DNA from: Alphaproteobacteria bacterium
Lineage (GTDB): Bacteria; Pseudomonadota; Alphaproteobacteria; UBA2136; UBA6156
Direction of reading: 5' to 3'
Assembly: GCA_027485835.1 (NCBI GenBank)
Contig: JAIXQG010000002.1
Span: 710,983-742,982, forward strand
Length of the DNA stretch: 32,000 nt
Within the stretch, counting starts at the first letter, position 1. Every line of letters starts with the position of its first letter. Under the pieces are notes generated by a model. It was given only the letters and a program-made list of their open reading frames with translations, had not been told where the DNA came from and searched no databases. Of this stretch, positions 4,339 to 32,000 are shown in pieces. The translations under genes were made by a program, and so were the position numbers.

Positions 4339-4378
4339 ATTGCTGGGTTTTGAGAGCGAATGTGCTTATACTTGGCGT

Positions 4379-5101: not shown

Positions 5102-5105
5102 GGAT

Positions 5106-7124
5106 ATGGTCCGTTGGAGTTTATTGGCGGCGCTACTGGTGATACCGGTAGGCTATGCCGACATGCAGGATGGTGCGGTGAACGAGCAAAATCTGGCAGC
5201 GATTGAACCGGCGGCCGGTGAGGATGACACCCCCGACCTGTTGGGCGAGCGCGCCAAGCAGATTCAGGATGAGGTGCGCGACGAGCTTTCCGGTGAGGAT
5301 GGCGGTAGCAAGGATGAGGCTGCGGTTGCGCCTATCGCCCCTGTGGAGAAGGGTGAGAAAGAGGATACCCGGGCGGTTTCGGCCAGCGGTATGAAGGTGC
5401 TGAGCAATAGCGACGCCAAGGCCTACCGCGAGGCGATGAAGCGCGCGCGGCGCGGGGAATTTCCGGCCCTGAAGGTGGAGGACGAGCTGCTGCTGGGCGA
5501 AGTGCGCGGGTTGTATTTGATGAACAAGCGCGGCGCGACGTTTAGCGAGCTGAATGGCTGGCTGAAGGACTATCGGGATTTGCCGATGGCGGCTTCGATC
5601 TATGACGAGGCCCTCAGTAAGCGCGAAACGCCCAAGCGTGTGTGCAAAACCAAACTGGTGACCAAGAAGGTTAAGAACAAGAAGACCGGTAAGATGGTCA
5701 GCAAGAAGGTGGATCAGAAGGTTTGTTCGTCGCAGGGTGGTTATGGCCCGATGCCGGTGAGAACCCTGCTGATGGAAAAAAAGGAAGCTACCCGTGCGGC
5801 ACAGGATGCCGCCCGTGCCAGCGACCTTGCCAAATTGCCTGCGGCCGGGCGTTCGGCCCTTGGCCAAAGCTGGCGTTTGCGCGGACAGGGCAAGTATGCC
5901 GAAGCGGCCAGCGTGATGTTGCAACCCGGCGTGCGTAACGCCGCGGGTGATGACAAGTGGCAGGGCGAACTGGTGCGTATTGCCGATTTTTATCATGGCA
6001 AGCGTATGTGGAAAGAGATGGTGCGTGTGGCCGAGCCCGCCAGCACCGCCCGTGGCCCCAACCGCGACGATGCACGCTGGTTGGCGGGGTATGGTCATTA
6101 CATGTTGGGTAACAAGGCCGCTGCGGCCGAGCAGTGGAGCCAGCTTGTGAAGGAAGAACCGGCAACGGGGACGCACAGTGCGCGTGCGGCCTTCTGGGGG
6201 GCACGCGCCTATAGCGAGCTGAACCAAGACAGCCGTGCCAAGAGCTTGCTGGAAGCGGGCGCGAAGGATCCAATCAGCTTTTATGGCCAGTTGAGTGCGG
6301 CCAAGCTGGGGAAGGCCCAACGTTTGGATTGGGATGTGCCGCATGTGGATGCCCGTGGTTTTGAACAGCTGACCCGTGTGAAGGCTGCCAAGCGCGGCTT
6401 GGCGCTGGCGCAGATTGGCGAAGTTGACATGGCGCAGCGCCAGTTGCGGGCGGCGTACGAGGACTTGCCCTACCAAGCCACCCGCACCCTTGCTGCGGCG
6501 TCTGTGCGGATGGGCCTGCCTGCTACCGCGCTGTATGCCGGTAAGCAGCTGAAGGAAGAAGGTACCGTGATGCCGGCGGCGTTGTTCCCGCTGGCGGAAG
6601 AGTGGTCTCCGAAAGAAGGCTGGACCTATGACCGTGCGTTGATGGTGGGGATCATGCGTCAGGAAAGTGCGTTTAACCCGCAGATTGGCAGCCGTGTAGG
6701 CGCGCAGGGGCTGATGCAGTTGATGCCTGCGACGTCGAAGTACATCGCCCGCCTGAGCGGCAAGAGCCTGCCGGACCGTACTGATCTGCACGACCCTGCC
6801 ACCAATCTGGGTTTGGCGCAGGACTACCTGCATTATCTGAACAAGAAACTGGATGGTAACCAGTTGCTGGTGGTGGCCGCCTATAACGGCGGGATTGGCA
6901 ACGTGCGCCGCTGGCTGGACCGTGGCGTGACCCCCGGCCATGACCCGATGCTGTGGCTGGAGAGTATTCCGTTTGATGAAACCCGTGATTATGTGGAGAA
7001 GGTGTTTGCCAATTACTGGTTGTATCAGCAGCGCATGAACCAGACGCCGTGGAGTTTGGCGGCGTTAGCAGACGGCTATTGGCCGCTCCAGTACAATGGC
7101 AACCGTAAGACGGCTTTGAAGTAA
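5106..7124 (+). CDS. slt: Soluble lytic murein transglycosylase (Slt70-like)
   Basis: Signal-peptide-like N-terminus (MVRWSLLAALLVIPVGYA), a long helical-repeat region, and a C-terminal SLT domain with the catalytic-Glu motif IMRQESAFNP, GAQGLMQLMPAT and AAYNGG. Confidence 0.88.
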   Translation: MVRWSLLAALLVIPVGYADMQDGAVNEQNLAAIEPAAGEDDTPDLLGERAKQIQDEVRDELSGEDGGSKDEAAVAPIAPVEKGEKEDTRAVSASGMKVLSNSDAKAYREAMKRARRGEFPALKVEDELLLGEVRGLYLMNKRGATFSELNGWLKDYRDLPMAASIYDEALSKRETPKRVCKTKLVTKKVKNKKTGKMVSKKVDQKVCSSQGGYGPMPVRTLLMEKKEATRAAQDAARASDLAKLPAAGRSALGQSWRLRGQGKYAEAASVMLQPGVRNAAGDDKWQGELVRIADFYHGKRMWKEMVRVAEPASTARGPNRDDARWLAGYGHYMLGNKAAAAEQWSQLVKEEPATGTHSARAAFWGARAYSELNQDSRAKSLLEAGAKDPISFYGQLSAAKLGKAQRLDWDVPHVDARGFEQLTRVKAAKRGLALAQIGEVDMAQRQLRAAYEDLPYQATRTLAAASVRMGLPATALYAGKQLKEEGTVMPAALFPLAEEWSPKEGWTYDRALMVGIMRQESAFNPQIGSRVGAQGLMQLMPATSKYIARLSGKSLPDRTDLHDPATNLGLAQDYLHYLNKKLDGNQLLVVAAYNGGIGNVRRWLDRGVTPGHDPMLWLESIPFDETRDYVEKVFANYWLYQQRMNQTPWSLAALADGYWPLQYNGNRKTALK

Positions 7125-7135
7125 GCTGAGGAACG

Positions 7136-7244
7136 GCGCGGGCTAAAACACTCCCACAGCACTTTTTGGCTGGGCTGAAATACTCTTTTCTGTATTCGGC
7201 GCCCCGCCAAAAAACACTGTGGAAGCGTTTATAGCTCCGCGCGC
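7136..7244. repeat. Nested-hairpin intergenic repeat, family 1, copy 2 (variant apex)
   Basis: Outer arms are GCGCGGGCTAAAAC (7136-7149) and GTTTATAGCTCCGCGCGC (7227-7244). Inner arms are CTTTTTGGCTGGGC (7162-7175) and GCCCCGCCAAAAAA (7201-7214). The apical stem is GAAATAC...GTATTC (7177-7197). Confidence 0.75.
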
Positions 7245-19905: not shown

Positions 19906-20403
19906 TTAAGCAGCGCTTTCGAGGGCTGACATTTCGGTACTGTTGAAGACTTTACGCATGTCGATGTGCACGATCATCTTATCTTCGTGGTTGGAGATAC
20001 CCTTGATGTATTCCGACCCGATGGAGCCAGCGACCAGCGAGGGTGGCGGCAGGATGCTGTCGGCCGGGATACGTTCCACTTCGCGCACGGCGTCGACGAT
20101 CAGACCGATGACCATGCCGTTGCCGAGCTCTACCACGATAATGCGGGTTTCATCGGTGGCGTCTTGGGTATCGACACCGAAGCGCTTGCGCAGGTCGACG
20201 ATCGGGATGATCTGGCCGCGCAGGTTGATGACGCCTTCTACAAACGAGGGGGCTTGCGGCACCGGCGTGATAGCGGTGAGGCGAATGATTTCGCGGACGT
20301 CGAGAATCGGGAGGGCGAACACTTCGCCGAAGAGTTCGAAGGTGACCAGCTGGTGCAGCATGGTGGTGGCTTTTTCGGCCTGGCGGCTTTGTGCGTTGAA
20401 CAT
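19906..20403 (-). CDS. cheW: Chemotaxis coupling protein CheW
   Basis: LVTFELFGEVFALPILDVREIIRLTAITPVPQAPSFVEGVINLRGQIIPIVDLRKRFG is a canonical CheW domain. Confidence 0.9.
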   Translation of the reverse strand: MFNAQSRQAEKATTMLHQLVTFELFGEVFALPILDVREIIRLTAITPVPQAPSFVEGVINLRGQIIPIVDLRKRFGVDTQDATDETRIIVVELGNGMVIGLIVDAVREVERIPADSILPPPSLVAGSIGSEYIKGISNHEDKMIVHIDMRKVFNSTEMSALESAA

Positions 20404-20529
20404 GAGTGAGAGCCTTCGGTTTTTATTATTATGGCTTTATTGGATATTAACTTACACGGGCGGTGCAGGGTTAGGCAAGAGTTTCGGTGACAGTGTGGTG
20501 TACGGTTGCGGATTATGGCAGCATAGGCT

Positions 20530-21879
20530 GTGGAATTAACGCAACTACCCGAACTGACGCAGCGGCTTGAAACGGTGCAACTGGTACACCCCTATGGCCG
20601 CGTGGTGGCCGTGGACGGGCTGGTGGTGCGGGTGGCCGGTTTGAGTGAAGCCGGAGCCGCCACCATGGGGGCGCGTTGTCGGATAACTGATATTTCCGGT
20701 GAGCCGGCGGGCCGACCGGCCGAAGTGGTGGGGACCGCCGAAGACGGGAATACGTTGCTGATGCCGTATGGCACCATGGAAGGCATCGGCCCCGGCCAGC
20801 GCGTGTATATGGACGGGCCGAGCGGTGGCAAACTGCGCATTAACCACAGCTGGATTGGCCGTGTGGTGAATGGGCTTGGCGACCCGCTGGATGGCAAAGG
20901 CCCGCTGGCCAGCATTGGAGGTGAGGAGCGCGTATTGCGTGCGGGGCCGCCGCCGGCGTTCCAGCGCAAAATGGTCGGCGCCAAAATGGACACCGGCGTG
21001 CGTGTGCTGAACACGTTATTGCCGTTGTGTGAAGGCCAGCGGATGGGGATTTTTGCCGGAAGTGGCGTGGGTAAAAGTGTGCTGATGGGGATGCTGACCA
21101 AGCACAGCAAGGCTGAAGTGACGGTGATCGGGCTGATTGGTGAGCGTGGTAAGGAGCTCAACGAGTTTATTCAGGAAGAATTAGGCCCTGCGGGCCTTGC
21201 CCGTAGCGTGGTGATTACCGCTACCAGTGACGAGCCGCCGCTGGTGCGGCGCCAGGCCGCGTATTTGACGTTGGCAGTGGCGGAGTATTTTAGAGACTGC
21301 GGTTTTAAGGTGCTGCTGCTGATGGACAGCGTAACGCGCCTTGCCCAAGCCCAGCGTGAAATTGGTTTGGCCAGCCGCGAGCCCCCGACGACACGGGGTT
21401 ATACCCCCAGTGTGTTTGCCGAGTTGCCGCGCCTGTTGGAGCGAGCCGGGCCGGGGACGGGGACGGGGACGATTTCGGCGATTTTTACCGTGTTGGTGGA
21501 GGGCTCCGACATGGAAGAGCCGGTGGCCGATGCCGTGCGCGGGATTTTAGACGGGCACATTATTCTGACCCGCAGCTTGGCGGAACGCGGCCATTTTCCG
21601 GCGATTGAAGTGTTGAAGAGTGTCAGCCGTATGGTACCGAAATGTTTGAGTGCCGAGGAGTATGCGTTAGTGCGCCGGACACGCCAGATACTGGCGACGT
21701 ATGATGATATGGCGGAGTTGATCCGGTTAGGTGCGTACACCAGCGGCAGCGACCCGCAGGTGGATGAGGCGATACGCCTGATGCCGCGCCTGGAAACTTT
21801 TTTGAAGCAGGCGCCGAATGAGAGTTGCAGCATGGCGGATAGCTTCCGCTTGCTGGAAGAAGCGATTGGCAAAGGCTAG
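20530..21879 (+). CDS. fliI: Flagellum-specific type III export ATPase
   Basis: GTG start at 20530; the upstream in-frame region is closed by TAG. Walker A is AGSGVGKSVLMGM and Walker B is VLLLMDSVTR. It has F1-beta-like architecture and fliJ follows. Confidence 0.9.
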   Translation: MELTQLPELTQRLETVQLVHPYGRVVAVDGLVVRVAGLSEAGAATMGARCRITDISGEPAGRPAEVVGTAEDGNTLLMPYGTMEGIGPGQRVYMDGPSGGKLRINHSWIGRVVNGLGDPLDGKGPLASIGGEERVLRAGPPPAFQRKMVGAKMDTGVRVLNTLLPLCEGQRMGIFAGSGVGKSVLMGMLTKHSKAEVTVIGLIGERGKELNEFIQEELGPAGLARSVVITATSDEPPLVRRQAAYLTLAVAEYFRDCGFKVLLLMDSVTRLAQAQREIGLASREPPTTRGYTPSVFAELPRLLERAGPGTGTGTISAIFTVLVEGSDMEEPVADAVRGILDGHIILTRSLAERGHFPAIEVLKSVSRMVPKCLSAEEYALVRRTRQILATYDDMAELIRLGAYTSGSDPQVDEAIRLMPRLETFLKQAPNESCSMADSFRLLEEAIGKG

Positions 21880-21889
21880 GCCCTGAGCG

Positions 21890-22303
21890 ATGGCCGAGAC
21901 GCTAGAGGTTCTGATTAAAGTTGCCGAACGTAAGGTGGAAGCAGCGCAGCAGGCGCTGGCCAAAACCCGTGAGGCGATTGATGCGTGCCGTAACCGTACC
22001 AAAGAGCTGGAGCAGGAGGCTGCGGTAGCGTTTGTGACGGCGGTGGCGGAAGACGATGTGCTCTCGATTCAGGCCGCGGGGGCGTTTCAGGAGCGGGTGC
22101 GGCGCGAGATTGCGGAGATCCGGCAGATGGAAGCGACCTTGCTGGAGAATGAGAAAGTTCAGCAAGCCCAGCTGCAGCAGCTTTTTGCGGGGCAGAAGAC
22201 GTATGAGCTGTTGTGGGAGAAAAAAAAGCTGGAGCGTAGGAAGGAGCGGCTTAAGAAGGCGCAGAATCAGTTGGATGAAGTAGCGGGCCGCGTTCGGAAA
22301 TAA
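21890..22303 (+). CDS. fliJ: Flagellar export chaperone/stalk protein FliJ
   Basis: 137-aa Glu/Ala/Lys/Gln-rich coiled-coil-type protein starting 10 nt after fliI, in the canonical fliI-fliJ order. Confidence 0.7.
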   Translation: MAETLEVLIKVAERKVEAAQQALAKTREAIDACRNRTKELEQEAAVAFVTAVAEDDVLSIQAAGAFQERVRREIAEIRQMEATLLENEKVQQAQLQQLFAGQKTYELLWEKKKLERRKERLKKAQNQLDEVAGRVRK

Positions 22304-22348
22304 AACATAGGCGCGGGCGACTCCGCTTCGCGTCGGACTCTGAAAAAC

Positions 22349-22372
22349 AAACGCCTCTTGGAGGCGTTTTTT
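22349..22372. terminator. Bidirectional rho-independent terminator between convergent fliJ and cheR
   Basis: AAACGCCTC (22349-22357), loop ttg, GAGGCGTTT followed by further T residues. An A-run lies on the other side. Confidence 0.85.
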
Positions 22373-22381
22373 GGGTTTGTA

Positions 22382-23383
22382 TTAGACGTTGTATTTGGGT
22401 GTTCCCGGAGGGGCCTTGCTGTAGGCGATGGCGTTGGTGTGGGTTTTGTCCGGGCGCAAGATATGACGCTGGCTATAGATGTTTTCCGAGTGGCCGAGCA
22501 GCACGAAGCCGTCGTCGTTGAGAATGCTTGAGAGGTTGCGGACAACTTTTTCCTTGCTGGCTTCGTCGAAGTAAATCAGCACGTTGCGGCAGAAGATGAT
22601 ATCGAACTTGCCGAGTGCGCTGGTGCGGGTAGTGTCCATCAGGTTGCCTTCCTGGAAGCGGCACATGGACTTAATATCCGGCTTGATGGTCCAGGTTTCG
22701 GTACCGCCGCCGGTACCCATGGCGTGGTCGAAGTTCTGTTGCAGGATGGAGGCTGGCACGTTGCGGATGTTGTACTTGCGATAAACACCGGCGCGGGCTT
22801 TTTGCAGGGCGTCGTGGCAGATGTCGGTGCCGACCAGTTCAAAGGTCATATCTTTGCCGACGAGGCCCATGTCTTTCAGCATGAGGGCCACGGTATAAAG
22901 TTCGTCGCCGGTGGAGGCGGCGGCGGAGAGGATGCGGAAGCGCATTTGACGCTGGGCCTTACGCGCGAAAATCATCGGCATCAGCACTTCGTCGCGGAAC
23001 GCTTGCAGCTGTGGCTCGTGGCGGTAGAAGAAGGTTTCGTTGATGGTGATCTCGTCGATCAGGAAGCCATATTCGCTGCGGCCGGAGGGGCTTTCTAGGT
23101 ACGCCAGGTAGGCTTCGAAATTCTTGAGGCCGAGGGCTTGGACGCGGAGGTCCAGCTTGCTGGCGATGAAGTAGGATTTGTTGGCTTCGAAGCGCATGCC
23201 GGAGAGCTCGTAAATGAGAGAGGCAAACTTGACGAAGAGAGAATCTGACAACTGCGGCCGGTTGGCGGCATTCACCAAACCTAACGCGGAAGGAGCCGCC
23301 GGAGCGGATGTGGCAGACGACGCCGGTGTGGCGGATGCAAAGGGTGACGTGGAGGGCACGAGTGACATAGCCTGACCCTGCAT
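22382..23383 (-). CDS. cheR: Chemotaxis protein methyltransferase CheR with an Ala/Ser/Pro-rich N-terminal extension
   Basis: FFYRHEPQLQAFRDEVL, a SAM-binding region RILSAAASTGDELYTVALML, and FDIIFCRNVLIYFD. The start is uncertain: TTG 23410, ATG 23383 or ATG 23368, none with a clear SD. Confidence 0.88.
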   Translation of the reverse strand: MQGQAMSLVPSTSPFASATPASSATSAPAAPSALGLVNAANRPQLSDSLFVKFASLIYELSGMRFEANKSYFIASKLDLRVQALGLKNFEAYLAYLESPSGRSEYGFLIDEITINETFFYRHEPQLQAFRDEVLMPMIFARKAQRQMRFRILSAAASTGDELYTVALMLKDMGLVGKDMTFELVGTDICHDALQKARAGVYRKYNIRNVPASILQQNFDHAMGTGGGTETWTIKPDIKSMCRFQEGNLMDTTRTSALGKFDIIFCRNVLIYFDEASKEKVVRNLSSILNDDGFVLLGHSENIYSQRHILRPDKTHTNAIAYSKAPPGTPKYNV

Positions 23384-23450
23384 GGCGGGCGCGTATACCG
23401 CAAGAGGCAATATATGACACGTTTCAGATTTGAAAGAGGGTGTGTGGCTA

Positions 23451-25592
23451 TTAGGCTGTAGTGGGGAGGGGGTTGTCGGTTTCGGCCAGCATTTCGGCGC
23501 GGGGATTGACTGGGAAGCTTTGCGTGGTTTCTACCGCGATGCCGCCATTCAGGCCGTAGCTTTGCAGCATGCTGCCCACCAGTGCTTGCAGGTTTTCGGT
23601 AAAGCCGTCTTCCGGTTGCGTGGTGCGGCGGAGTTTGAGCCAGATGTCTGGGTAGGTTATCAGACCATCCAGCTGGAGGGCACCGATGTTCGACATATCG
23701 ACCTCCACCACAAAGCGTGTGGAGGTGGGGGCACGGGGGTCGTCCTTTTTCTCACGGCGCCAGAAAAAACCACCTTGGCGGGGGTCTTCGCCGGACGCTT
23801 CTACATACGGAAACAGGGTGCCACGCCATTGGTTCTCGCTTTCCGGAGAGGGGCGTTGTTGCAATTGGCTGAGTTGGGAAATGTCGGATGATAGGTCGAT
23901 TCCCATCGCTTTGAGAAGGCGAACGGCTTCGCGGTCGAGGGCCTTTTCGGGATCGTTGGTGCGTAGCGCGTTGGTGAAGGCGATGAGGCCCGGTAACATC
24001 TGGCTGAGTTGGGGGAGGCTTGCGCGCAGGCGGTCGGCTGCGATTGGCGACTGCTGTTGGAGGGCGTGGAGGCCTTGCTGGAGATTCTCCCACCGTGCGC
24101 CGATGGTGCCGACGGTATAGGCTGCCTGCGTTTGGGCGGGCAAAGTAAGACCAAGGATGGTGGCGGCGAGGGAGTCTCCGACACGGATGGTGAGGCCCGC
24201 GCCGAGCGGCATGAGCGCGGTGGGGTTGGTGAGATTGAGTGCCGCTTGCTGGCCAGCCATGGCCGGGGGTGCGGTGAGGGTGAGCAACGGCTGGCCCTGC
24301 TCGTTTTGGCCGGTAATGGTGCCCTGTACGACCATGCCCGGTGCGAGTACCGCGGTTTTGATTTGGGGCGCGACCGGTGCGGCGGTTTGCGGCGTTTGGT
24401 TGCCCTGCAGGTTGGTGTTGGGCTGTTGTTGGCTTTGACTATCCGGCGTGAGAACGCGTTGGACGGCGGCGGAGGGATTGATAGGAATATCCGGCATGAT
24501 GACGATACTTCCGGTTGGGAGGGGTTGTGGGGTGGTGAGTGTAACGGTGGCGCCGCTGGCGAGCAGGGCGGTGTGCTGGCCTGCGGGTTGACCCGGCTGG
24601 GGTGGCAGAATGCGCGCGGCGGTAGGGGTGGGAAGGAGGTCGGGTGTATCCGCAGTCGGGGGGAGAGCCGGAGCGTTTTGCAGGGCGATGGGTTGGTTGG
24701 GAATCTGTGGTACGGCGGTGCTTGGACCGGTGAGAAAGAGTGTGGGTTGGGCTTGGGGTTGTGGGGAGGATGTAGGTGTTGCGGGCGGCAAGATGATGGC
24801 CGCTTGCGGTTGGTTGGGTTTGAGCTCGACACCAAGGTTCAGGGTAATGGGCGTAGTGATGGGCCGGCTGTTGGGAAGTTGCACCGTGGGGCCGTTGGCC
24901 GGTTGCAGCGTGGCGGGTTGCGTACCGTCGGGCTTGAGAGGGCCGGTGGGCACCAGCGTGAGCGGTTGGTTGAGCAGATTTTGCGGCAAGGTGGCGGGTT
25001 GGCTGATGGCGACGGGCCCTGCGGGGACAGGCAGGGGGATCGGTTGGTTGGGGTTGCTGGGTTGTTGGATCGGTTGTGGTTGCGCCAACGCGTTGGCCAG
25101 TGCGTTGGTGATGGCGGTGCTGAGGGCTTGAGGGGAGGTGGCCTCGGCCGCCACCTGTAACACCGGATAAGGAGGTGGTGTGATGGGTTGTTGCGGTGTT
25201 GTGGTTTGGCTCGGTTGGGTAATGATGGCGGCGCCCTGCGCGCCTGCAGAAAGTGTGGCCGGTGAGGGCAAGATTTTGGCTTGAATGACAGGAGCGGTGG
25301 GGGTGGTTTGGTTGGGAAGGAGATCGGCGGGGCTGAGTTGCAGGCGCGTGCCGGTGGGCAGCGCCGGATTTACCGTCGCTTGAAAGATTTGCCCGTTGCT
25401 GGCGGTGAAGGTGAGGGTGTTGCCCTTGCCTTCGGTGACGGTCAGGGTGAACGGTTGGGCGGGGTTTTGGTTGAGAATCTGCATCTTCACGTCGGCAGGG
25501 AGTTGCGGGGTGAAGGTGATGGTGACGGTTTGAGAGACGCCATTACCGGTAAGGCGGTTGAGGAGATTGGGTAGGGCGTCTAATAAATTCAT
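23451..25592 (-). CDS. Pro/Thr/Gln-rich 713-aa protein, probable flagellar hook-length control protein (FliK-like)
   Basis: The ORF-track start 25676 lies inside a repeat, so I trimmed it to ATG 25592 (MNLLDALPNLLNRL...). A very long low-complexity P/T/Q/A region precedes a folded-looking C-terminal ~110 aa (FVVEVDMSNIGALQLDGLITYPDIWLKLRRT...LQALVGSMLQSYGL) that resembles the Flg_hook C-terminal domain. It sits next to cheR and other flagellar genes. Confidence 0.55.
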   Translation of the reverse strand: MNLLDALPNLLNRLTGNGVSQTVTITFTPQLPADVKMQILNQNPAQPFTLTVTEGKGNTLTFTASNGQIFQATVNPALPTGTRLQLSPADLLPNQTTPTAPVIQAKILPSPATLSAGAQGAAIITQPSQTTTPQQPITPPPYPVLQVAAEATSPQALSTAITNALANALAQPQPIQQPSNPNQPIPLPVPAGPVAISQPATLPQNLLNQPLTLVPTGPLKPDGTQPATLQPANGPTVQLPNSRPITTPITLNLGVELKPNQPQAAIILPPATPTSSPQPQAQPTLFLTGPSTAVPQIPNQPIALQNAPALPPTADTPDLLPTPTAARILPPQPGQPAGQHTALLASGATVTLTTPQPLPTGSIVIMPDIPINPSAAVQRVLTPDSQSQQQPNTNLQGNQTPQTAAPVAPQIKTAVLAPGMVVQGTITGQNEQGQPLLTLTAPPAMAGQQAALNLTNPTALMPLGAGLTIRVGDSLAATILGLTLPAQTQAAYTVGTIGARWENLQQGLHALQQQSPIAADRLRASLPQLSQMLPGLIAFTNALRTNDPEKALDREAVRLLKAMGIDLSSDISQLSQLQQRPSPESENQWRGTLFPYVEASGEDPRQGGFFWRREKKDDPRAPTSTRFVVEVDMSNIGALQLDGLITYPDIWLKLRRTTQPEDGFTENLQALVGSMLQSYGLNGGIAVETTQSFPVNPRAEMLAETDNPLPTTA

Positions 25593-25613
25593 TTTGCTCA
25601 AGCTAACAGAACT

Positions 25614-25724
25614 GCGCGGGCTAAAACAGCCCCCCAGCACTTTTTGGCGTGGCTTATGTACTCCATGCCTGTACACAGCGCCCCGCCAAAAAGCACCGGG
25701 ATTTCTGTTTGTAGCCCCGCGCGC
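25614..25724. repeat. Nested-hairpin intergenic repeat, family 1, copy 3
   Basis: Outer arms are GCGCGGGCTAAAACAG (25614-25629) and CTGTTTGTAGCCCCGCGCGC (25705-25724). Inner arms are CTTTTTGGCGTGGC (25640-25653) and GCCCCGCCAAAAAG (25680-25693). The apex is TTATGTAC-N9-GTACAC (25654-25676). Confidence 0.8.
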
Positions 25725-25764
25725 AGGGGCAACGTCGCTGCGCGCCGTACATTGGGCTGTGTAT

Positions 25765-26067
25765 TTACGCGGATTGGGTGAGGATGGTTTTGAGCAGGCC
25801 GGGGAAGCGTTTGTCGAGGTCGGTTTTACGCAGGCTGTTGAAGTGTGTTTGGCCTTGCTTTTCGGTGGCGATGATACCGGACTCGCGCAGGATTTTGAGG
25901 TGGTGGGTGAGCGTGCTACGCGGGGTGTCGCAGCAGACGTCGCCGCAGCTCATGCCTTCGCATTCCGACAGCTTGCGCACGATGGCGAGGCGGGTGGGGT
26001 CGCCCAGCGCGTAGAGGACCTGCGGTAGGTCGAACTCGTGGGTGTCGGGGTGCGTGAAGGAACTCAT
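25765..26067 (-). CDS. ArsR/SmtB-family winged-helix transcriptional regulator
   Basis: The ORF-track start 26316 is trimmed to ATG 26067 (MSSFTHPDTHEF...). LYALGDPTRLAIVRKLSE...STLTHHLKILRESGII is the ArsR-type wHTH signature. Confidence 0.8.
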   Translation of the reverse strand: MSSFTHPDTHEFDLPQVLYALGDPTRLAIVRKLSECEGMSCGDVCCDTPRSTLTHHLKILRESGIIATEKQGQTHFNSLRKTDLDKRFPGLLKTILTQSA

Positions 26068-26203
26068 GCTTTTGAGATAGCAGTTAGGGGTAAGATTTTC
26101 AAGGGCTATTCTGTTATTACGAAAATATCGAAATAAAGATGGACACGCCGGAGAGAGTGTGGTGGGATAGCAATAACGAAACGACAACATGAGGAAGAAC
26201 GAT

Positions 26204-26929
26204 ATGAATCTGAAAGGAAAAACGGCTTTTGTCACCGGTGGTAGCCGCGGAATTGGGGCGGCGATTGTGCGGCGTTTGGTGAAGGATGGCGCGCACGTGG
26301 TGTTTACCACCAGCAAGAGCGTAGACGCGGCGGAAGCGCTTGTGAAAGAACTGGGTGGTGCGGCGAGTTATGTGGTAGCCGACAGCACGGATATGAATGC
26401 CGTGCGCGTGGCGGTGAGAGAGGCTGCGGCCACGCATGGCAGGTTGGATATTTTGGTGAACAATGCCGGTGTGTTTAAGCATGTGGCGGGTGATGAGACG
26501 CTTTACCGATGGCAGCAAGCGGTGAATGTGGACGCGGTGTGGGCCGCCGTGCAGGAGGCGCATAAGGTGCTGGCTGAAGGTGGCCGAATTGTGAACGTGG
26601 GTAGTGTGATGGGTGAGCGGGCGATGATGCCCGGTGTGGCCGAATACAGCGCGACCAAAGCCGCGATTAAGATGTTTACGCAAGGGTGGGCCTTAGATTT
26701 TGCACCGCGTAACATTACGGTCAACACGGTGGCGCCAGGGCCGATTGATACCGACATGAACCCTGATGATGGCGGAGATTTTGCGAATGCGACCAAGGCT
26801 GCCGTGCCGCTGGGCCGCTATGGTAAGCCGGAGGATATTGCGGCGGCGGTGGCGTTTTTGGCAAGTGCCGAAGCCGGGTACATTACCGGTGTGACGCTGT
26901 TGGTAGATGGTGGGATTGGCGCGAAATAG
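26204..26929 (+). CDS. Short-chain dehydrogenase/reductase (classical SDR)
   Basis: GAGGAAG lies 6 nt upstream of ATG 26204. Motifs: TGGSRGIGAA, NNAG, and catalytic YSATKAA (Y-x3-K). The gene is divergent from the ArsR-like gene. Confidence 0.85.
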   Translation: MNLKGKTAFVTGGSRGIGAAIVRRLVKDGAHVVFTTSKSVDAAEALVKELGGAASYVVADSTDMNAVRVAVREAAATHGRLDILVNNAGVFKHVAGDETLYRWQQAVNVDAVWAAVQEAHKVLAEGGRIVNVGSVMGERAMMPGVAEYSATKAAIKMFTQGWALDFAPRNITVNTVAPGPIDTDMNPDDGGDFANATKAAVPLGRYGKPEDIAAAVAFLASAEAGYITGVTLLVDGGIGAK

Positions 26930-26947
26930 GTTAATGGAGAAGGCGAG

Positions 26948-26975
26948 GAGAGGGGCTAGGCCTCTCTCTTTTTTA
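26948..26975 (+). terminator. Rho-independent terminator after the SDR gene
   Basis: GAGAGGGGC (26948-26956), loop tag, GCCTCTCTC (26960-26968), then a T7 run. Confidence 0.8.
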
Positions 26976-27059
26976 TTGTAGGCAAGGGGTTTGATGTGTA
27001 TACGTGTGGGGGAGCTTTGGCTTGGACTGAATGTTTGGCGCCTACCTGTGGAGGGAACC

Positions 27060-27812
27060 ATGGCGAAGACTGTGATTGTGGAATTTGACGTTTTTAACGT
27101 CAACGAGTTGCCTAAAGGTGTGACCTTGAGCGATGTCGTCAGTGTACCGCGAAGTTACGAGATTTACCGTTATTTTGCCGAGCATTTCGATGTATCGGTT
27201 CTCGATATCGAAATTGAAAAAGGGTGCGTTACCAATCTCCATGTCGACGGATTGGATCGTCGCAGCTTGCCTGTAAGGGACGCTGTTCCGACGATTCTGG
27301 AATGGGCCAAGGCCCTGCCGGAAATGGTGATTTATATTCGGACCGAAGGAGATCCGGACGGTCTGTATGAATCGCCTTACCGGATCCAGCGGTCGACGCT
27401 GGAATCGAGCCTTCCGGCCCTGCTGGATGTTTTGCAAACCCAAGACAACTATGGGTTTGTGGTTGATCATGGAATTTTGGTGTCGGATGAGCTTGAGACA
27501 AACGCCTCGGAGCCATCTGAGTGTGTGGCTGATCTTTTGCTCGATGGTAGACCCGTGTCAAAAGTCCTGTTTAAAATGCTCAACCTACGTCTCTCGGAAT
27601 GCGGGTTAAGCCAGAGCTTGGAGAACAAGCTTTCCGAGAAGAATGTCTTGTATGTCGCGGAGTTGGCAACTATGACCGAGAAGGATTTTCTAGCCATGCC
27701 GAATACCGGGAAAAAGACACTCACGGCGGCGAATGAGCTGCTCGGAAGCTTAGATCATCGTTTAAAAGTAGGAATAACCCTTGAAGGTTGGACACGGCCT
27801 GAAACGATGTAA
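27060..27812 (+). CDS. 250-aa protein: unknown N-terminal domain fused to an RNA polymerase alpha C-terminal-domain-like (HhH) module
   Basis: The ORF-track start 26991 is trimmed to ATG 27060, which is preceded by GGAGGG (27050-27055). The C-terminal ~70 aa align colinearly by eye with RpoA alpha-CTD (N-x-L, Y-[IV]-x-[DE]-L, T-E-x-[DE]-[FL]-L, PN-x-GKK-[ST]-LT, LE-x-W). GC is 55/120 (46%) in 27061-27180, against 37/60 (62%) in sampled stretches of both neighbouring genes. Confidence 0.7.
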   Translation: MAKTVIVEFDVFNVNELPKGVTLSDVVSVPRSYEIYRYFAEHFDVSVLDIEIEKGCVTNLHVDGLDRRSLPVRDAVPTILEWAKALPEMVIYIRTEGDPDGLYESPYRIQRSTLESSLPALLDVLQTQDNYGFVVDHGILVSDELETNASEPSECVADLLLDGRPVSKVLFKMLNLRLSECGLSQSLENKLSEKNVLYVAELATMTEKDFLAMPNTGKKTLTAANELLGSLDHRLKVGITLEGWTRPETM

Positions 27813-27823
27813 CGCGATGCTGT

Positions 27824-27852
27824 GAGGCGGGGGTGAGAACCTCCGCCTTTTG
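27824..27852. terminator. Bidirectional terminator between the alpha-CTD-like gene and flhG
   Basis: GGCGGGGG (27826-27833), loop tgagaa, CCTCCGCC (27840-27847), then TTTTGGCGTTTTT. Confidence 0.75.
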
Positions 27853-27858
27853 GCGTTT

Positions 27859-28641
27859 TTAGGCAGCTTTTTGGGAAGGGAGGAGGAGTTTGGGGAGGAG
27901 GGCTTCGATAGCCTCGACGGCCGTGCTTTGCGGATAGGTGAGCGCGGCGATGGCTTGGCTGCGCACGGCGGTGCTGTAGAGTTTGTCGGTGGGAATAATG
28001 CCCAGCAGCGGGAGGGGTGGGAGTTTCAGGAAGTTTTCGGCGGCGGTGGAGAGGCGGGTGTGGACCTGTTGGCCTTCGGTTTTGCTGGCCTGATTGACGA
28101 TGAGGCGCGTGTTGGCGGTGCCGTGATTCTGCCAGAGCAGTTTGATGAGGGCGTAGGCGTCGGTGAGCGAGGAGGGGTCCGGCGTGCTCACCAGCAGGGT
28201 GGCGGTGCTTTGCGCGCACATGATGAGTTGAGCGGGAGCGACACCAGCGGCGACGTCGATCAGGATGACGGTGGCGTTGCTGGTGAGCGCGCGGAGGTCG
28301 GTCAGCAATTGTGTGAGTTGTGGCTGCGTGACGTTGGTGAGGCCGGAGTGGCCGGCGCGGCCGGGAAGCAGTGTGACGCTACCTTTGCCGGTGGAAAGCT
28401 GTGGGATGGGCAGGGCGATGTCGGACAGGGTGGCTTGGCCGGCGAGAACGTGGGCGAGGTCCTTTACCGGTTGCACGTTGAGCTGGACGTCGAGGTTGGC
28501 GAGGCCTGTGTCGCCATCCAGCAGCAGCACATGTTGGCCTTGTTTGGCCAGCAGGGTGGCGAGGTTGAGCGTGAGGGACGTTTTGCCTACACCGCCCTTG
28601 CCGGAGGCGATGGCGAACATCGGGGTGGAGGTGTGGATCAT
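27859..28641 (-). CDS. flhG: MinD/ParA-type flagellar number regulator FlhG (FleN/YlxH-like)
   Basis: The ORF-track start 28695 is trimmed to ATG 28641, which overlaps the flhF stop as ATGA. It has a deviant Walker A (ASGKGGVGKTSLTLNLA) and LLLDGDTGLANLDV. Confidence 0.85.
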   Translation of the reverse strand: MIHTSTPMFAIASGKGGVGKTSLTLNLATLLAKQGQHVLLLDGDTGLANLDVQLNVQPVKDLAHVLAGQATLSDIALPIPQLSTGKGSVTLLPGRAGHSGLTNVTQPQLTQLLTDLRALTSNATVILIDVAAGVAPAQLIMCAQSTATLLVSTPDPSSLTDAYALIKLLWQNHGTANTRLIVNQASKTEGQQVHTRLSTAAENFLKLPPLPLLGIIPTDKLYSTAVRSQAIAALTYPQSTAVEAIEALLPKLLLPSQKAA

Positions 28642-29654
28642 GAGGTGAACTCCCAAGGTTGGCGCGGCAGGGTGCCGAGCGATTGTGCCAGCCATTGCGG
28701 CGTAAGGTTAAGCGGCGCGGCGGCAATATTGCCGTTGTGGGCGGCGAGGCCCAGCGGTAAACCTGCGGCAACGGCGGTGTTGAGGAGGGCGCCGTAGCGG
28801 GTGGTGCAATCCAGCTTGGTGACCACCAGACTTTGCAGGTTGAAACGGTGAGTGGCGACGGGGAGCAGGCCCATATCGTCGGCGTTCATATCGGCCGGAA
28901 TGACGAGGTGGGCGGTGACCGGTAGGCCGAGTGAGTCGAGACGCTGCTTGAGTTGGGCGAAGGCTTGCGGTTGATAGGGGTTGAGCGCGGGGGTATCTAT
29001 GAGAAGCACATGGCGTTTGCCCATGCCCTGTGCGGCCGCGTGCAGGCTGCTGGTGGCGGTGAGGAGGTAGGCTTCGTCGTCGAGCGTTTCGGCGGTGATG
29101 GCCAAGGGTTCGAAGCCCGCAAGTTTTTGGTCATCGAGTGACAAAATACCCGCTTTGCGGCCGCTTTGGTGCAATTGCACCGCCAGTTTGGCGATAAGGG
29201 TGGTTTTGCCACAGCCGGGCGGGCCGAGGAAGAGGTGGGCGCCGCCGGGGGTGAGGGCTTCGGTTGCGGGGACGAAGCGCACCATTTTGGAGAGCAGCAT
29301 GTCCAGCGCTTCGGTCGCCGAAAAACCGGCGGATTGGAGGCCGGGCAGGGCGGCGGTGAGCTTGGTGATAAGCCCTTCGTTGACGCCGTGGTGGCGCAGA
29401 ATGGTATCTAGCCCCGTATGCGGTGTGGCGGTGGGAATGGCGGGGCGTGCGGAGAGGATACTGGCGGGGATGGGTTCGACCGGTTGGGAGGGGGGTTCCG
29501 GTTCGTTGACGGCGGCGGTGATTTCCAGCGTTTGCTCGCCCTGCGCGTTGGTGACCTTGCGCGTGCTGAGGATCAGCGCCTCGGGCCCCAGCTCTTGCCG
29601 GATGATGGTGAGGGCGTCGGCCATCTTTGGAGCCGTGAGGGTTTTTATGCGCAT
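28638..29654 (-). CDS. flhF: SRP-type flagellar biosynthesis GTPase FlhF (divergent G2/G3 motifs)
   Basis: The N-terminus MRIKTLTAPKMADALTIIRQELGPEALILSTRKV is typical FlhF. G1 is GPPGCGKT and G4 is TKLD. The G3 position reads DTPA (28986-28997) rather than DTAG. Confidence 0.85.
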   Translation of the reverse strand: MRIKTLTAPKMADALTIIRQELGPEALILSTRKVTNAQGEQTLEITAAVNEPEPPSQPVEPIPASILSARPAIPTATPHTGLDTILRHHGVNEGLITKLTAALPGLQSAGFSATEALDMLLSKMVRFVPATEALTPGGAHLFLGPPGCGKTTLIAKLAVQLHQSGRKAGILSLDDQKLAGFEPLAITAETLDDEAYLLTATSSLHAAAQGMGKRHVLLIDTPALNPYQPQAFAQLKQRLDSLGLPVTAHLVIPADMNADDMGLLPVATHRFNLQSLVVTKLDCTTRYGALLNTAVAAGLPLGLAAHNGNIAAAPLNLTPQWLAQSLGTLPRQPWEFTS

Positions 29655-29680
29655 ATTAACCTTTTCATTAGCATGGATTA

Positions 29681-29789
29681 GTACGGGCGGAAACGGCCCC
29701 CCAGCACTTTTTGGCGTAGCTTATGTACAATTTGTGCCGTACACGGCGCTCCGCCAAAAAGCACCGGGATGTCCGTTTCTGCCTCGTAC
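29681..29789. repeat. Nested-hairpin intergenic repeat, family 1, copy 4
   Basis: Outer arms are GTACGGGCGGAAACGG (29681-29696) and CCGTTTCTGCCTCGTAC (29773-29789). Inner arms are CTTTTTGGCGTAGC (29707-29720) and GCTCCGCCAAAAAG (29748-29761). The apex is TTATGTAC-N10-GTACAC (29721-29744). Confidence 0.8.
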
Positions 29790-29845
29790 GCAGGGGGTTA
29801 CGCTTTGCGTTGCCCTTCGGGTCCGCCGAAGGGCGACTCTTCGGC

Positions 29846-29895
29846 GGTTGGCGCTACGAGAGCTATGGCCTGCGGCGATGTCTTGCGCCAAGAGG
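29846..29895. repeat. ~50-bp repeat module 2 (copy of 7276-7325)
   Basis: See 7276-7325. The terminal inverted repeat is TTGGCGC (29848-29854) with GCGCCAA (29885-29891). Confidence 0.7.
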
Positions 29896-29933
29896 AAGGC
29901 CTTTGACCTGACTTTTTATTGAAAACTGGCGGT

Positions 29934-29949
29934 TGGCACGGCTTTTGCA
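29934..29949 (+). promoter_or_regulatory. Sigma54 (-24/-12) promoter of the flagellin gene
   Basis: TGGCACGGCTTTTGCA is TGGCAC-N5-TTGCA, an exact match to the -24 GG and -12 GC consensus core. It ends 30 nt upstream of the flagellin ATG, with AGAGGAG as SD in between. Confidence 0.8.
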
Positions 29950-29979
29950 TTGATGGGGCATAGATAGAGGAGTCCGATC

Positions 29980-31881
29980 ATGCCGGTTTCGATTACTGCC
30001 AATGTGTCTGCGCGTTATGCCCAGGCCAGTTTGACGCGCCAGAATGAGGCGATTACCCAAGGGACATTGCGCATGAGCAGTGGCCAGCGCGTGTTAAGTG
30101 CGGCCGATGATGCGTCGTCGATGGCGATTGGCTCCAGCCTCAAGATTGAAAACGCCGGTGTGAAAAGCGCTATTCTCAACGCCACCAGCGGCACCAGCAT
30201 GTTACAGATTGCGGATGGCGCGCTGGGCCAGATTTCTGAACTGTTAACCCGCATGAAGGCGTTGGCGACGCAGTCGAGCAGTGGCCAGTATGATGATGCC
30301 ACCCGCCTGTTGCTGGATGGGGAGTTTCAGGGCCTGAAAGCGGAAATCGAGCGTGTAGCGAATGGCACCACGTTTAACGATGTGAAGATGTTGGCGGGTG
30401 AAAAAGATTTTGATCTGGCCTATGGCGCGACCGGTATTGCCGGAATTTCGAATGTGCGGTTTGACCAGACGCTTGTGGGGAGCGATCAGTCGTTCCGTTA
30501 CTCGTATGACTCGGCCAGCGAAAACTTTACCCTGACACGGGTTGATGGTGGTGCGACGACGACCCAGACTATCAACATTACCGCGCTGCTGAACGGTACT
30601 GTGGGTGTGGGTGGCAACCTTGCCAACAACCAGACACTGGAGCTTGGTTTTAGCCAGCTGGGCGTGACGTTGACACTGGGTGCAGGCTTTTTGCGGACCC
30701 AAGATATTACCACCGGTGTGACCGTGGCCGATGGTGGCGTGATGGATGTGGCGTCGTCGTCGTTCGTTGGTACCGGTAACGCCCTGCCTGCCGCGGCCAC
30801 CACGACATTGACCGCCCTTGGTGCGGCGTTTAATGCCACCACCGGTGCGTTGAACTTGCCGACTACCAGTGACGGTACGGTGTTGCGTCTGGATGCGTTG
30901 GCGGGGATCAGTTACGCCGTGAACGGTGGGGCGATTGGTGCCGTGGGTGCTGCCAGCCCCGACCTTGCCAGTGCAGGCCCGACCACCGTGGACGTGTACG
31001 CCACCAGTGGCACCAGCCGTGTGTTGGTGGGCCGTGTGACGCTGGGAGACACAAGCTCTCCGGCGGCGGGTGCGGATGCGATTTCGCTTGCGGTCAAAAC
31101 ACCGGGAGCGGCGGGCATACCGGTCGCAACCGTGGCCGACCTGACCGCGCTTGGCGGTGTGTTTAGTACAGCGACCGGTGCCCTGACCCTGCCCACGACC
31201 AGTAATGGCACGACCGTGACGTTGGATGCTGTGCCCGGTGTAAGCTACGCCGTGAACGGCGGTGCGGTAGGTGCCAGTGGGGCTGCTAGCGGTGACCTTG
31301 TAGGAGCTGGCCCGGTGACCGTGGACGTGTATGTGGATGCCGCCGCGGGCGGGCAGGTATTGCTGGGCCGTGTGACCTTGGGTGATGTGGCTGCCACGGG
31401 TGTAGGCACCGGCAGCCTGACCGTAAATGTAGGTGCAGGGTTGATGACCGCCACGGATAGCGGAGAGGTGAAATCGACCTACCTGACCTATAAGGTTGGT
31501 ACCGGTGTGGCGGCGGGGATTGACACGATTGGGGTGGAGATTCCGGCGATGACCCTGACGGCGCTGAACCTTGAAACTGTGACGATTGCAACCCAAACCA
31601 ATGCGGATCTGGCGATTGATGCCATGACGGCGGCGCTGGCGGTGCTGAACCAAGGCCGCGCCAACGTGGGTGCCCAGCAGTTGCGGATGGAAGCTGTGGC
31701 GCGCAGTTTGGGTGTAGTTTCGGAAAACAACGAAGCGGCCAAGAGCTCTCTGATTGACGTGGATGTGGCGGCGGAAATTACCGAGATCACGACGAATCAG
31801 GCCATGATGGAGGCGAGCATTGCGATGCTGGGCCGTGCCAACCAGTTGCCGGATATCTTGCTCGAACTGCTGCGTAACTAA
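29980..31881 (+). CDS. fliC: Flagellin (633 aa) with a long Ala/Gly/Thr/Val-rich central region
   Basis: The conserved flagellin N-domain is present (RMSSGQRVLSAADDASSMAIGSSL...MLQIADGALGQISELLTRMKALATQS), as is the C-domain (RANVGAQQLRMEAVARSL...IDVDVAAEITEITTNQAMMEASIAMLGRANQLP). AGAGGAG serves as SD. Confidence 0.92.
   Translation: MPVSITANVSARYAQASLTRQNEAITQGTLRMSSGQRVLSAADDASSMAIGSSLKIENAGVKSAILNATSGTSMLQIADGALGQISELLTRMKALATQSSSGQYDDATRLLLDGEFQGLKAEIERVANGTTFNDVKMLAGEKDFDLAYGATGIAGISNVRFDQTLVGSDQSFRYSYDSASENFTLTRVDGGATTTQTINITALLNGTVGVGGNLANNQTLELGFSQLGVTLTLGAGFLRTQDITTGVTVADGGVMDVASSSFVGTGNALPAAATTTLTALGAAFNATTGALNLPTTSDGTVLRLDALAGISYAVNGGAIGAVGAASPDLASAGPTTVDVYATSGTSRVLVGRVTLGDTSSPAAGADAISLAVKTPGAAGIPVATVADLTALGGVFSTATGALTLPTTSNGTTVTLDAVPGVSYAVNGGAVGASGAASGDLVGAGPVTVDVYVDAAAGGQVLLGRVTLGDVAATGVGTGSLTVNVGAGLMTATDSGEVKSTYLTYKVGTGVAAGIDTIGVEIPAMTLTALNLETVTIATQTNADLAIDAMTAALAVLNQGRANVGAQQLRMEAVARSLGVVSENNEAAKSSLIDVDVAAEITEITTNQAMMEASIAMLGRANQLPDILLELLRN
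30808..31386 (+). repeat. Internal tandem duplication within the flagellin variable region (period 333 nt = 111 aa)
   Basis: Unit cores 30808-31050 and 31141-31386 encode LTALGAAFNATTGALNLPTTSDGTVLRLDALAGISYAVNGGAIGAVGAAS...VLVGRVTLGD and LTALGGVFSTATGALTLPTTSNGTTVTLDAVPGVSYAVNGGAVGASGAAS...VLLGRVTLGD. Confidence 0.85.
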
Positions 31882-31913
31882 GTTTAACCCTTACGGATAC
31901 GGAGCGTTAACAC

Positions 31914-32000
31914 ATGGCAAAGATCGGACTTGCCGCGGAACTGGCCAAACAGGCGGCGCAAGCGGCCCGTGAGGAAGTGGCCGCACTCAGCGGAGAAGCT
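31914..32000 (+). CDS. 5' end of an unidentified ORF downstream of flagellin (runs off the window)
   Basis: ATG 31914 is followed by an open frame to the window end (MAKIGLAAELAKQAAQAAREEVAALSGEA...). GGAG lies about 9 nt upstream. The fragment is too short to identify. Confidence 0.35.
   Translation, partial: MAKIGLAAELAKQAAQAAREEVAALSGEA

Follow-up and report, generated by a model that had tools for sequence, protein, structure and literature searches.

A fast-evolving gene beside flhFG joins an orphan N-terminal domain to a divergent RNA polymerase alpha-CTD-like domain

Gene X and its three-part product

We analyzed a 32,000-nucleotide stretch of an alphaproteobacterial genome (contig JAIXQG010000002.1, positions 710,983 to 742,982; hereafter the window) with a focus on one open reading frame (ORF), gene X, whose product ends in a divergent homologue of the C-terminal domain from the alpha subunit of RNA polymerase (alpha-CTD). 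Gene X starts with an ATG at 27060 and stops at 27810-27812 (250 codons), and its product (N-terminus MAKTVIVEF) is an acidic cytoplasmic protein of three parts, namely an N-terminal domain (N-domain) of ~140 residues, a linker of ~30 residues, and an alpha-CTD homologue of ~75 residues. The N-domain carries a net charge of -11 and the linker one of -4, and the C-terminal domain is near neutral. Two further family members were found, one at locus L002 of a metagenome-assembled genome (MAG, GCA_005768725.1) and one on a 1-kb contig. The features of gene X and its immediate flanks are as follows.

27060..27812, plus strand: gene X, from ORF and translation, encoding a 250-aa acidic protein (isoelectric point, pI, 4.7; net charge -16)
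27060..27479, plus strand: orphan N-terminal domain, residues 1-140, predicted alpha/beta (b-a-a-b-b-b-a-b-a-b), net charge -11
27480..27575, plus strand: acidic, indel-rich linker, residues 141-172, of varying length among the three members, net charge -4, predicted local distance difference test (pLDDT) 24-35
27576..27809, plus strand: divergent RNA polymerase alpha-CTD-like (helix-hairpin-helix) domain, residues 173-250, from the PF03118 match, the PDB profile matches, and the kept core, hairpin and LEGW
27615..27617, plus strand: codon of Ser186, equivalent in a hidden Markov model (HMM) alignment to R265 of E. coli RpoA, the UP-element contact
27699..27719, plus strand: hairpin P-N-T-G-K-K-T, equivalent by alignment to E. 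coli P293-S299
27050-27054, plus strand: Shine-Dalgarno sequence GGAGG, 5 nt 5' of the gene X ATG
27021..27059, plus strand: gene X leader including the Shine-Dalgarno sequence, conserved in all three loci in a DNA alignment of the upstream regions
26991..27007, plus strand: TTGATGTGTATACGTGT, conserved between the window and L002, a candidate promoter or operator
26945..26971, plus strand: terminator-like hairpin with T-run, 3' of a short-chain dehydrogenase (SDR) gene, separating it from gene X
27829..27850, no strand assigned: hairpin between the convergent stops of gene X and flhG, probably a bidirectional terminator, present in all three loci

Profile searches placed the C-terminal part of the protein with the alpha-CTD. 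The Pfam model RNA_pol_A_CTD (PF03118) matched residues 174-223 at 26.9 bits (E 3.9e-6), above its curated gathering threshold of 23.8 bits, whereas the orthologue in the MAG, P0002, scored 20.7 bits and fell below it. A profile built from the three family members matched solved alpha-CTD chains with E values of 5.7e-10 (9zum_A) and 1e-8 (7ye1_A; residues 178-247), and E. coli alpha-CTD structures (1lb2_B, 3k4g_A) at about 5e-8, again over residues 178-247. By sequence comparison, residues ~173-247 are homologous to the alpha-CTD, as the original prediction had proposed from an alignment by eye. The register was set by an HMM alignment that included the E. coli alpha-CTD sequence, a sequence that was corroborated by near-identical segments of P0051 and P0069 and by the PDB profile matches, and it confirmed the earlier assignment of a serine, Ser186, to the position of R265. 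AlphaFold 2 (AF2) put helices at the expected places in this domain; with a pLDDT of 24-48, the model is unusable. The further view that this is not the housekeeping rpoA was upheld as well: the protein contains no alpha N-terminal domain (alpha-NTD), the alignments of eight NCBIfam rpoA models are confined to residues 172-247 and fall well short of the whole-protein cut-offs (a score of 30.9 where 302 is needed), and the genomic neighbors encode ArsR, SDR, FlhG and FlhF instead of forming a ribosomal-protein/rpoA operon. Gene X as housekeeping RpoA is excluded on these grounds, and its product is not an alpha subunit.

The N-domain is an orphan, and its earlier description as unrecognizable held in database searches. 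Residues 1-170 matched nothing in Pfam, NCBIfam, PHROGs, PADLOC or the PDB sequences, and a profile search of the N-domain against 5.8 billion protein clusters found no relative beyond the gene X family. A diverged alpha-NTD was considered and rejected (hhalign against genuine RpoA NTDs, probability 0.3%). AF2 runs on the full protein and on the N-domain alone, both from three-sequence alignments, reached mean pLDDT values of 42.9 and 45.6, too low to use; the two low-confidence runs gave the same order over residues 1-136 (beta-alpha-alpha-beta-beta-beta-alpha-beta-alpha-beta), and Foldseek searches with these models returned nothing significant.

Among the 5.8 billion protein clusters, the gene X protein is a singleton. 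An exhaustive phmmer search of 1.84 billion representatives yielded 73 matches. A single one, P0002 (251 aa, E 9e-53), spans the whole protein, with 48% identity, and all others share just the alpha-CTD; P0074 (257 aa), which is 61% identical to P0002, came to light when P0002 itself served as the query. When the family alignment was run against GTDB species genomes, JGI metagenome contigs and IMG/VR viral contigs, only the already-known MAG was recovered, and tblastn against GenBank phages and PLSDB plasmids found no relative of gene X. Within the total of about 15 billion proteins searched, the family has three members only, all in closely related alphaproteobacterial genomes; a comparison of phage or plasmid with chromosomal occurrence, which had been proposed as a check, thus gave three chromosomal loci at the same site and no phage or plasmid relative. 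The record of the MAG is labeled 'Blastochloris viridis', a species of the Hyphomicrobiales, and this label may be unreliable: the GC content of locus L002 is 58%, set against about 68% for B. viridis. The 1-kb contig of the third member also carries the 3' end of flhG, convergent with gene X and with the same hairpin between them.

Gene X is a genuine protein-coding gene under overall purifying selection: it has an intact ORF in three genomes, a ratio of nonsynonymous to synonymous divergence (dN/dS) of ~0.21, a Shine-Dalgarno sequence, and a conserved leader. Its frame, start codon, ribosome-binding site and a leader of about 45 nt are common to all three genomes, and all three proteins begin with MAKT. 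In the DNA alignment of the three loci, the leader is more conserved than the coding sequence. A leader segment GGCGCC (27037-27042) could pair with a GGCG just 3' of the ATG, a pairing that is predicted only and that lacks covariation across the three loci, and an Rfam search of the window, conserved leader included, found no known RNA. No sigma70-, sigma54- or sigma28-type consensus could be assigned upstream of gene X, including 26991..27007, and a weak sigma54-like string does not keep its GG in L002 or L006; a sigma54 or sigma28 promoter for gene X was rejected for lack of an upstream match. A longer, TTG-started version of the gene (from 26991) is unlikely, as the orthologous locus is free of stop codons for only 7 codons before the ATG. 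The hairpin at 26945-26971 is retained in L002 with a different stem sequence.

Lost determinants and domain-specific divergence

We compared the functional determinants of the alpha-CTD in the three family members with those in 178 other alpha-CTD-like domains, taken from 70 proteins found by phmmer. The position of R265, the residue most critical for DNA and UP-element binding by the alpha-CTD, is S, V and A in the three members, whereas Arg is present in 74% of the other domains. Likewise, the position of N268 is occupied by N/K/E (Asn in 69% of the other domains), that of E302 by A/D/N (Glu in 76%), that of K298 by K/Q/K (Lys in 62%), and that of S299 by T/R/T. The gene X family thus does not retain the '265 determinant' (R265, N268, G296, K298, S299, E302), nor are the equivalents of the sigma70-contacting 261 determinant conserved. 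What is retained comprises structural positions (E286, P293, N294, G315, L318, E319 and W321), the P-N-T of the hairpin, which is invariant while its remainder varies as GKKT, GTQR and ARKT, and, to a relative degree, a T/P-E-x-D-[FI]-L segment that corresponds to a portion of the '287 determinant' in E. coli.

The loss of determinants is accompanied by a strong and localized acceleration. Between the window and the MAG, the gene X protein is 49% identical, whereas identity in the six surrounding genes reaches 82-93%; gene X has a dN of 0.48 and the neighbors one of 0.05-0.12, with dN/dS, imprecise for gene X, at about 0.21 versus 0.07-0.14. In the closest pair (the MAG and the third contig), identity amounts to 81% in the N-domain, 39% in the linker and 45% in the alpha-CTD-like domain, and dN is 0.10 in the N-domain, like that of the neighboring genes, versus 0.59 in the alpha-CTD-like domain, a ~6x faster evolution than that of the N-domain. 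Identities in the other two pairs are 55-56% in the N-domain, 25-34% in the linker and 46-47% in the alpha-CTD-like domain, so that linker and alpha-CTD-like domain are the fastest-evolving parts of the protein. All indels among the three orthologues are in frame, and the ratio of the proportions of nonsynonymous and synonymous differences (pN/pS) lies at 0.34-0.49 overall, with a value of 0.15 when the closest pair is compared over the N-domain. Gene X therefore presents itself as a fast-evolving gene under purifying selection. Almost all invariant residues of the alpha-CTD-like domain belong to the core or the hairpin (L, V, A, G, W, P-N-T, LEGW), a pattern suggesting that the fold is kept while the surface is free to change.

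The composition of the gene also stands out, although by less than had been estimated: its GC content is 49.3% in the window, not about 46%, and 53% in each of the other two genomes, against 58-64% for the neighbors and a window mean of 58.6%. The combination of low GC and high divergence fits a fast-evolving lineage-specific gene as well as a foreign gene.

Two of the activities that the original prediction had suggested for the domain are disfavored by these data. Canonical minor-groove or UP-element reading is unlikely on the aligned residues, because R265, the most critical one, has been lost; R265 and E302, replaced by S/V/A and A/D/N, are kept in 74-76% of the 178 other domains. Titration of activators by faithful mimicry of the alpha-CTD fits poorly with a domain that is 45-47% identical among orthologues and diverges ~6x faster than the N-domain in the closest pair. 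Because R265 and E302 are lost and the divergence is that fast, we infer that the domain neither reads UP elements nor faithfully imitates the host alpha-CTD as a decoy. Tethering of the N-domain is the most reasonable of the three suggested modes that remains.

The chromosomal setting of gene X

Gene X lies, as had been noted, next to flhF and flhG and near a flagellin gene with a perfect sigma54 site. The features of the surroundings are as follows.

23451-25676, minus strand: proline- and glutamine-rich (P/Q-rich) ORF, 741 aa, no Pfam match; homologues at L009 6680-8638 and L012 6765-8420
25765-26076, minus strand: gene with an ArsR-type helix-turn-helix (HTH; Pfam), part of the inserted block
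26189-26929, plus strand: SDR gene (Pfam), part of the inserted block
27859-28695, minus strand: FlhG, neighbor of gene X
28638-29654, minus strand: FlhF, neighbor of FlhG
29934-29949, plus strand: sigma54 promoter TGGCACGGCTTTTGCA, perfect consensus, 30 nt upstream of the flagellin gene
29980-31881, plus strand: flagellin, 633 aa, preceded by the sigma54 promoter

The gene order is identical in the window and the MAG: P/Q-rich ORF (-), ArsR (-), SDR (+), gene X (+), FlhG (-), FlhF (-), flagellin (+), FliD, FliS, FliL. In all three family members, gene X is convergent with flhG. The remaining window is ordinary core chromosome, with trmD, rplS, rnhB, mutY, dciA, ATP synthase F0 genes, cheW, fliI, fliJ and cheR, and TGGCACGGCTTTTGCA is the sole zero-mismatch sigma54 match in its 32 kb.

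Comparison with other flhG loci indicated how gene X may have come to lie here. In L009 and L012, which are among the nearest lineages (FlhG 36-41% identical), flhA-flhF-flhG is followed directly by an ORF of 551-652 aa that is homologous to the 741-aa P/Q-rich ORF of the window (BLASTP E 1e-8 and 5e-17). L002 has the ArsR and SDR genes in the same arrangement; L009 and L012 have neither of them between flhG and the homologue of the P/Q-rich ORF. Because flhG directly adjoins that homologue in L009 and L012, flhF-flhG-(P/Q-rich ORF) is the older contiguous order, into which the ~2.1-kb ArsR-SDR-X block was inserted. A search for mobile-element hallmarks at the block revealed neither a tRNA or integrase nor flanking repeats. 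The earlier suggestion that gene X was probably horizontally acquired is hence borne out insofar as the block interrupts a contiguous order, but not in its wider sense, as gene X is inherited in place in three genomes, with no relative in the phage, plasmid, viral-contig or metagenome collections searched and no tRNA or repeats. An FlhG-anchored metagenome scan retrieved 80 further flhG-type loci, and none of the 80 contained an alpha-CTD-like ORF or the N-domain of gene X. The flagellar neighborhood is most likely a by-product of the site at which the block inserted, and the inference of a motility role from the neighborhood is weakened because the block is inserted and holds two genes unrelated to flagella. 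The hint at motility regulation in the original prediction likewise found no support in the 80 other loci or in a sigma54 or sigma28 promoter.

Several further observations concern the surrounding genes. The P/Q-rich ORF is 82% identical in the MAG, and its C-terminal ~300 residues are homologous to the unannotated ORF next to flhG in distant lineages; it is a conserved, uncharacterized protein of the flagellar locus, possibly of a hook-length-control-like kind. Its true start is likely the internal Met of MNLLDALPNLL, at about 25592, and not the GTG at 25676. GC skew on the plus strand is positive throughout 20000-32000 (0.04 to 0.54) and peaks over the P/Q-rich gene (24350-25550), where minus-strand proline and glutamine codons enrich G on the plus strand. 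The longest flhG ORF, of 278 aa, shares 58 nt with the end of flhF (28638-28695, minus strand), and the FlhG start is ambiguous, gene callers in related loci having chosen both 260/261-aa and 279-aa versions. In L002, a 322-aa Peptidase_S74 (tail-spike chaperone-type) gene lies between fliJ and cheR (4370-5338, minus strand); it is missing from the window genome at the equivalent site, 22304-22381.

An imperfect-palindrome element of ~85 bp, CCCCCCAGCACTTTTTGGCG...GTAC...GTAC...CGCCAAAAAGCACCGGG, occurs twice in direct orientation (25620-25715 and 29690-29785, plus strand), with ~89% mean column identity between these two main copies and a weaker copy near 7157. The two copies lie just 5' of the minus-strand P/Q-rich ORF and of flhF, and so bracket ArsR-SDR-X-flhG-flhF. 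L002 has a diverged version 5' of flhF and does not share the one 5' of the P/Q-rich ORF; the duplication looks specific to the window genome on this comparison, and the element could be a duplicated promoter/operator or a small element resembling repetitive extragenic palindromes (REP) or miniature inverted-repeat transposable elements (MITE).

A possible docking module and its relatives outside RNA polymerase

Our preferred reading, which we hold tentatively, is that the C-terminal domain of the gene X protein serves as a flexibly tethered, low-specificity docking module that positions the orphan N-domain. The alpha-CTD-type domain would contact a protein partner, or the DNA backbone through its hairpin, and would thereby place the better-conserved N-domain, in which the real activity of the protein presumably resides, near the transcription machinery or the nucleoid. 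This 'domain - flexible linker - alpha-CTD' grammar would be the same as that of RpoA itself, and short proteins with a variable N-terminus and one C-terminal alpha-CTD recur elsewhere in unrelated genomic contexts. Several points weigh against docking. The C-terminal fold is assigned from sequence homology, the AF2 models at pLDDT 43 and 46 being unusable, and with only three sequences the 'conserved' residues are weakly defined. The synonymous sites of gene X are near saturation (proportion of synonymous differences, pS, 0.66-0.80), which makes dN/dS imprecise. Relaxed constraint or decay would explain the fast divergence of the alpha-CTD-like domain just as well as docking would, and, as the hairpin keeps basic residues, binding to the DNA backbone and binding to a protein appear indistinguishable at the level of the alignment.

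Among the alternatives, the best surviving one, which we nonetheless consider unlikely, is that the protein binds DNA, its helix-hairpin-helix (HhH) contacting the minor groove or backbone and guiding the N-domain to specific loci, in the manner of a small regulator or nucleoid-associated factor confined to this lineage. The alpha-CTD is a DNA-binding domain of the (HhH)2 type, and all three members retain P-N-T together with one or two basic hairpin residues. In related short proteins, an alpha-CTD is combined with a DNA-binding HTH, for example AlpA or sigma70 region 4, and the alpha-CTD-like domain of PglW has been read as a nucleic-acid-binding module (PMC12839542). Yet R265 is replaced by S/V/A, N268, K298, S299 and E302 are not conserved, the surface of the domain changes rapidly, and the acidity of the protein is strong, with a pI of 4.7 and a net charge of -16 to -19.

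That gene X is a decoy, competing with the alpha-CTD of RNA polymerase for an activator or other binder, possibly in flagellar control, seems distinctly unlikely. Its domain is truly homologous to the alpha-CTD, the segment belonging to the '287 determinant' is relatively conserved, the gene adjoins flhFG and a sigma54 flagellin gene, and E. coli FlhD4C2 requires the alpha-CTD to activate class II flagellar promoters. The genuine host alpha-CTD is among the most conserved protein surfaces in bacteria, and a decoy is disfavored because a mimic of so nearly invariant a surface would be expected to be conserved, whereas this domain is 45-47% identical among orthologues whose neighboring genes are 82-93% identical. 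Neither the 261 nor the 265 determinant has conserved equivalents, the target of sigma54 activators is sigma54 and not the alpha-CTD, the gene is absent from 80 other flhG loci, and the inserted block to which it belongs also holds the unrelated ArsR and SDR genes.

An origin in a conflict system or mobile element, with gene X as a fast-evolving sensor or inhibitor (for example, of phage alpha-binding factors) that landed in a flagellar locus, has a similarly low likelihood. The low GC, the very narrow distribution, the rapid divergence of one domain and the inserted block would all suit such an origin, and alpha-CTD-like domains accompany T5orf172, ResIII helicase and sigma70_r4/HARE-HTH modules as well as the kinase PglW of the bacteriophage exclusion (BREX) system. 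Against it stand the lack of a match in PADLOC or PHROGs, of relatives in phage, plasmid or viral-contig collections, and of neighboring defense genes, integrase, tRNA or flanking repeats, as well as the stable inheritance at one chromosomal site; R265, the target of T4 ADP-ribosylation, is also absent from gene X. Membership in a defense system was rejected, as there was no PADLOC match.

A bolder idea, and a long shot, is that gene X encodes a chromosomal lineage-specific accessory factor whose alpha-CTD-type domain plugs into the interactions of the polymerase alpha-CTD (with an activator, a sigma region, or an alpha-targeting phage or host protein). The rapid change of its surface would then be the mark of an arms race or of partner switching, and such a factor would represent a novel class of mimics of the polymerase surface, perhaps tied to sigma54-dependent flagellar expression. 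The weakest candidate, a decaying or functionless lineage-specific ORF with a degenerating duplicate as its alpha-CTD-like part, would account for the highest divergence and lowest GC in the locus, the weak Pfam score (26.9 bits, and 20.7 in P0002, versus 47-92 bits for other single alpha-CTD proteins) and the lost functional determinants, but is very improbable given a full reading frame, start codon, Shine-Dalgarno sequence and leader kept in three genomes despite ~50% amino-acid divergence, exclusively in-frame indels, pN/pS values of 0.34-0.49 overall and 0.15 for the N-domain of the closest pair, and invariant core residues of the alpha-CTD fold.

At present, gene X is chiefly of value because it illustrates domain-specific accelerated evolution cleanly, and, as an orphan in three uncultured or poorly known genomes, it is a caution against inferring function from a flagellar neighborhood. 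If the protein proved to interact with the transcription machinery, bacteria would be seen to reuse the alpha-CTD outside RNA polymerase as a portable module for docking, and gene X would also offer an experimental entry to a large unstudied set of non-RpoA alpha-CTD proteins.

Compared with RpoA, gene X is homologous over the whole ~70-residue domain of PF03118 and still has the hydrophobic core, E286, the P293-N294 hairpin, G315 and, at its end, L318-E319-x-W321; in both proteins, the domain is C-terminal and joined by a flexible linker. Unlike RpoA, gene X has no alpha-NTD, lies outside a ribosomal-protein operon, lacks a conserved R265, E302 and 261 determinant, and evolves very fast, whereas the genuine alpha-CTD is highly conserved. 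The kinase PglW of BREX type 2 likewise contains an alpha-CTD-like helical domain within a non-polymerase protein, where it is read as a nucleic-acid-binding component next to fast-evolving modules, and this domain was the only one found in literature searches for stand-alone or alpha-CTD-like proteins (PMC12839542). PglW, however, is a large multidomain kinase in a defense operon, whereas gene X has no kinase, winged HTH, ATPase, defense neighbors or PADLOC match.

The closest parallels are uncharacterized metagenomic non-RpoA PF03118 proteins, which, as gene X, carry an alpha-CTD-type domain outside RNA polymerase. Short proteins of the same type (P0028, P0032, P0055, P0070) have one alpha-CTD, at the C-terminus, that ends in LEGW/GWxxP and follows an N-terminus without annotation; one short single-alpha-CTD protein carries a phage AlpA-type HTH, and the genomic contexts of three others showed no common theme. 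The domains of the non-RpoA proteins score 47-92 bits, versus 27 bits for gene X, most of them keep R265 and N268, which the gene X family does not, and their N-terminal parts are unrelated to its N-domain and their genomic contexts differ. The set found here (P0003-P0073) is itself large, diverse and apparently undescribed. It includes proteins in which 3-10 alpha-CTD repeats stand in tandem after an N-terminus resembling a signal peptide (P0003, P0011, P0024, P0029, P0068), a family of ~700 aa that combines two alpha-CTDs and sigma70 region 4 with a long stretch at the C-terminus (P0010, P0012, P0017, P0020, P0022, P0025, P0031, P0034, P0038), combinations of T5orf172 with alpha-CTDs (P0005, P0007, P0042) and of a ResIII helicase with four alpha-CTDs (P0015, P0049), and an FGE-sulfatase enzyme with two inserted alpha-CTDs (P0008). 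An alpha-CTD-type domain outside RpoA is already known, if unstudied, being listed in Pfam and seen by phmmer in dozens of architectures; what is new in gene X is the orphan N-domain, the loss of the DNA determinants and the domain-specific acceleration, which together make it a new domain architecture in a known class.

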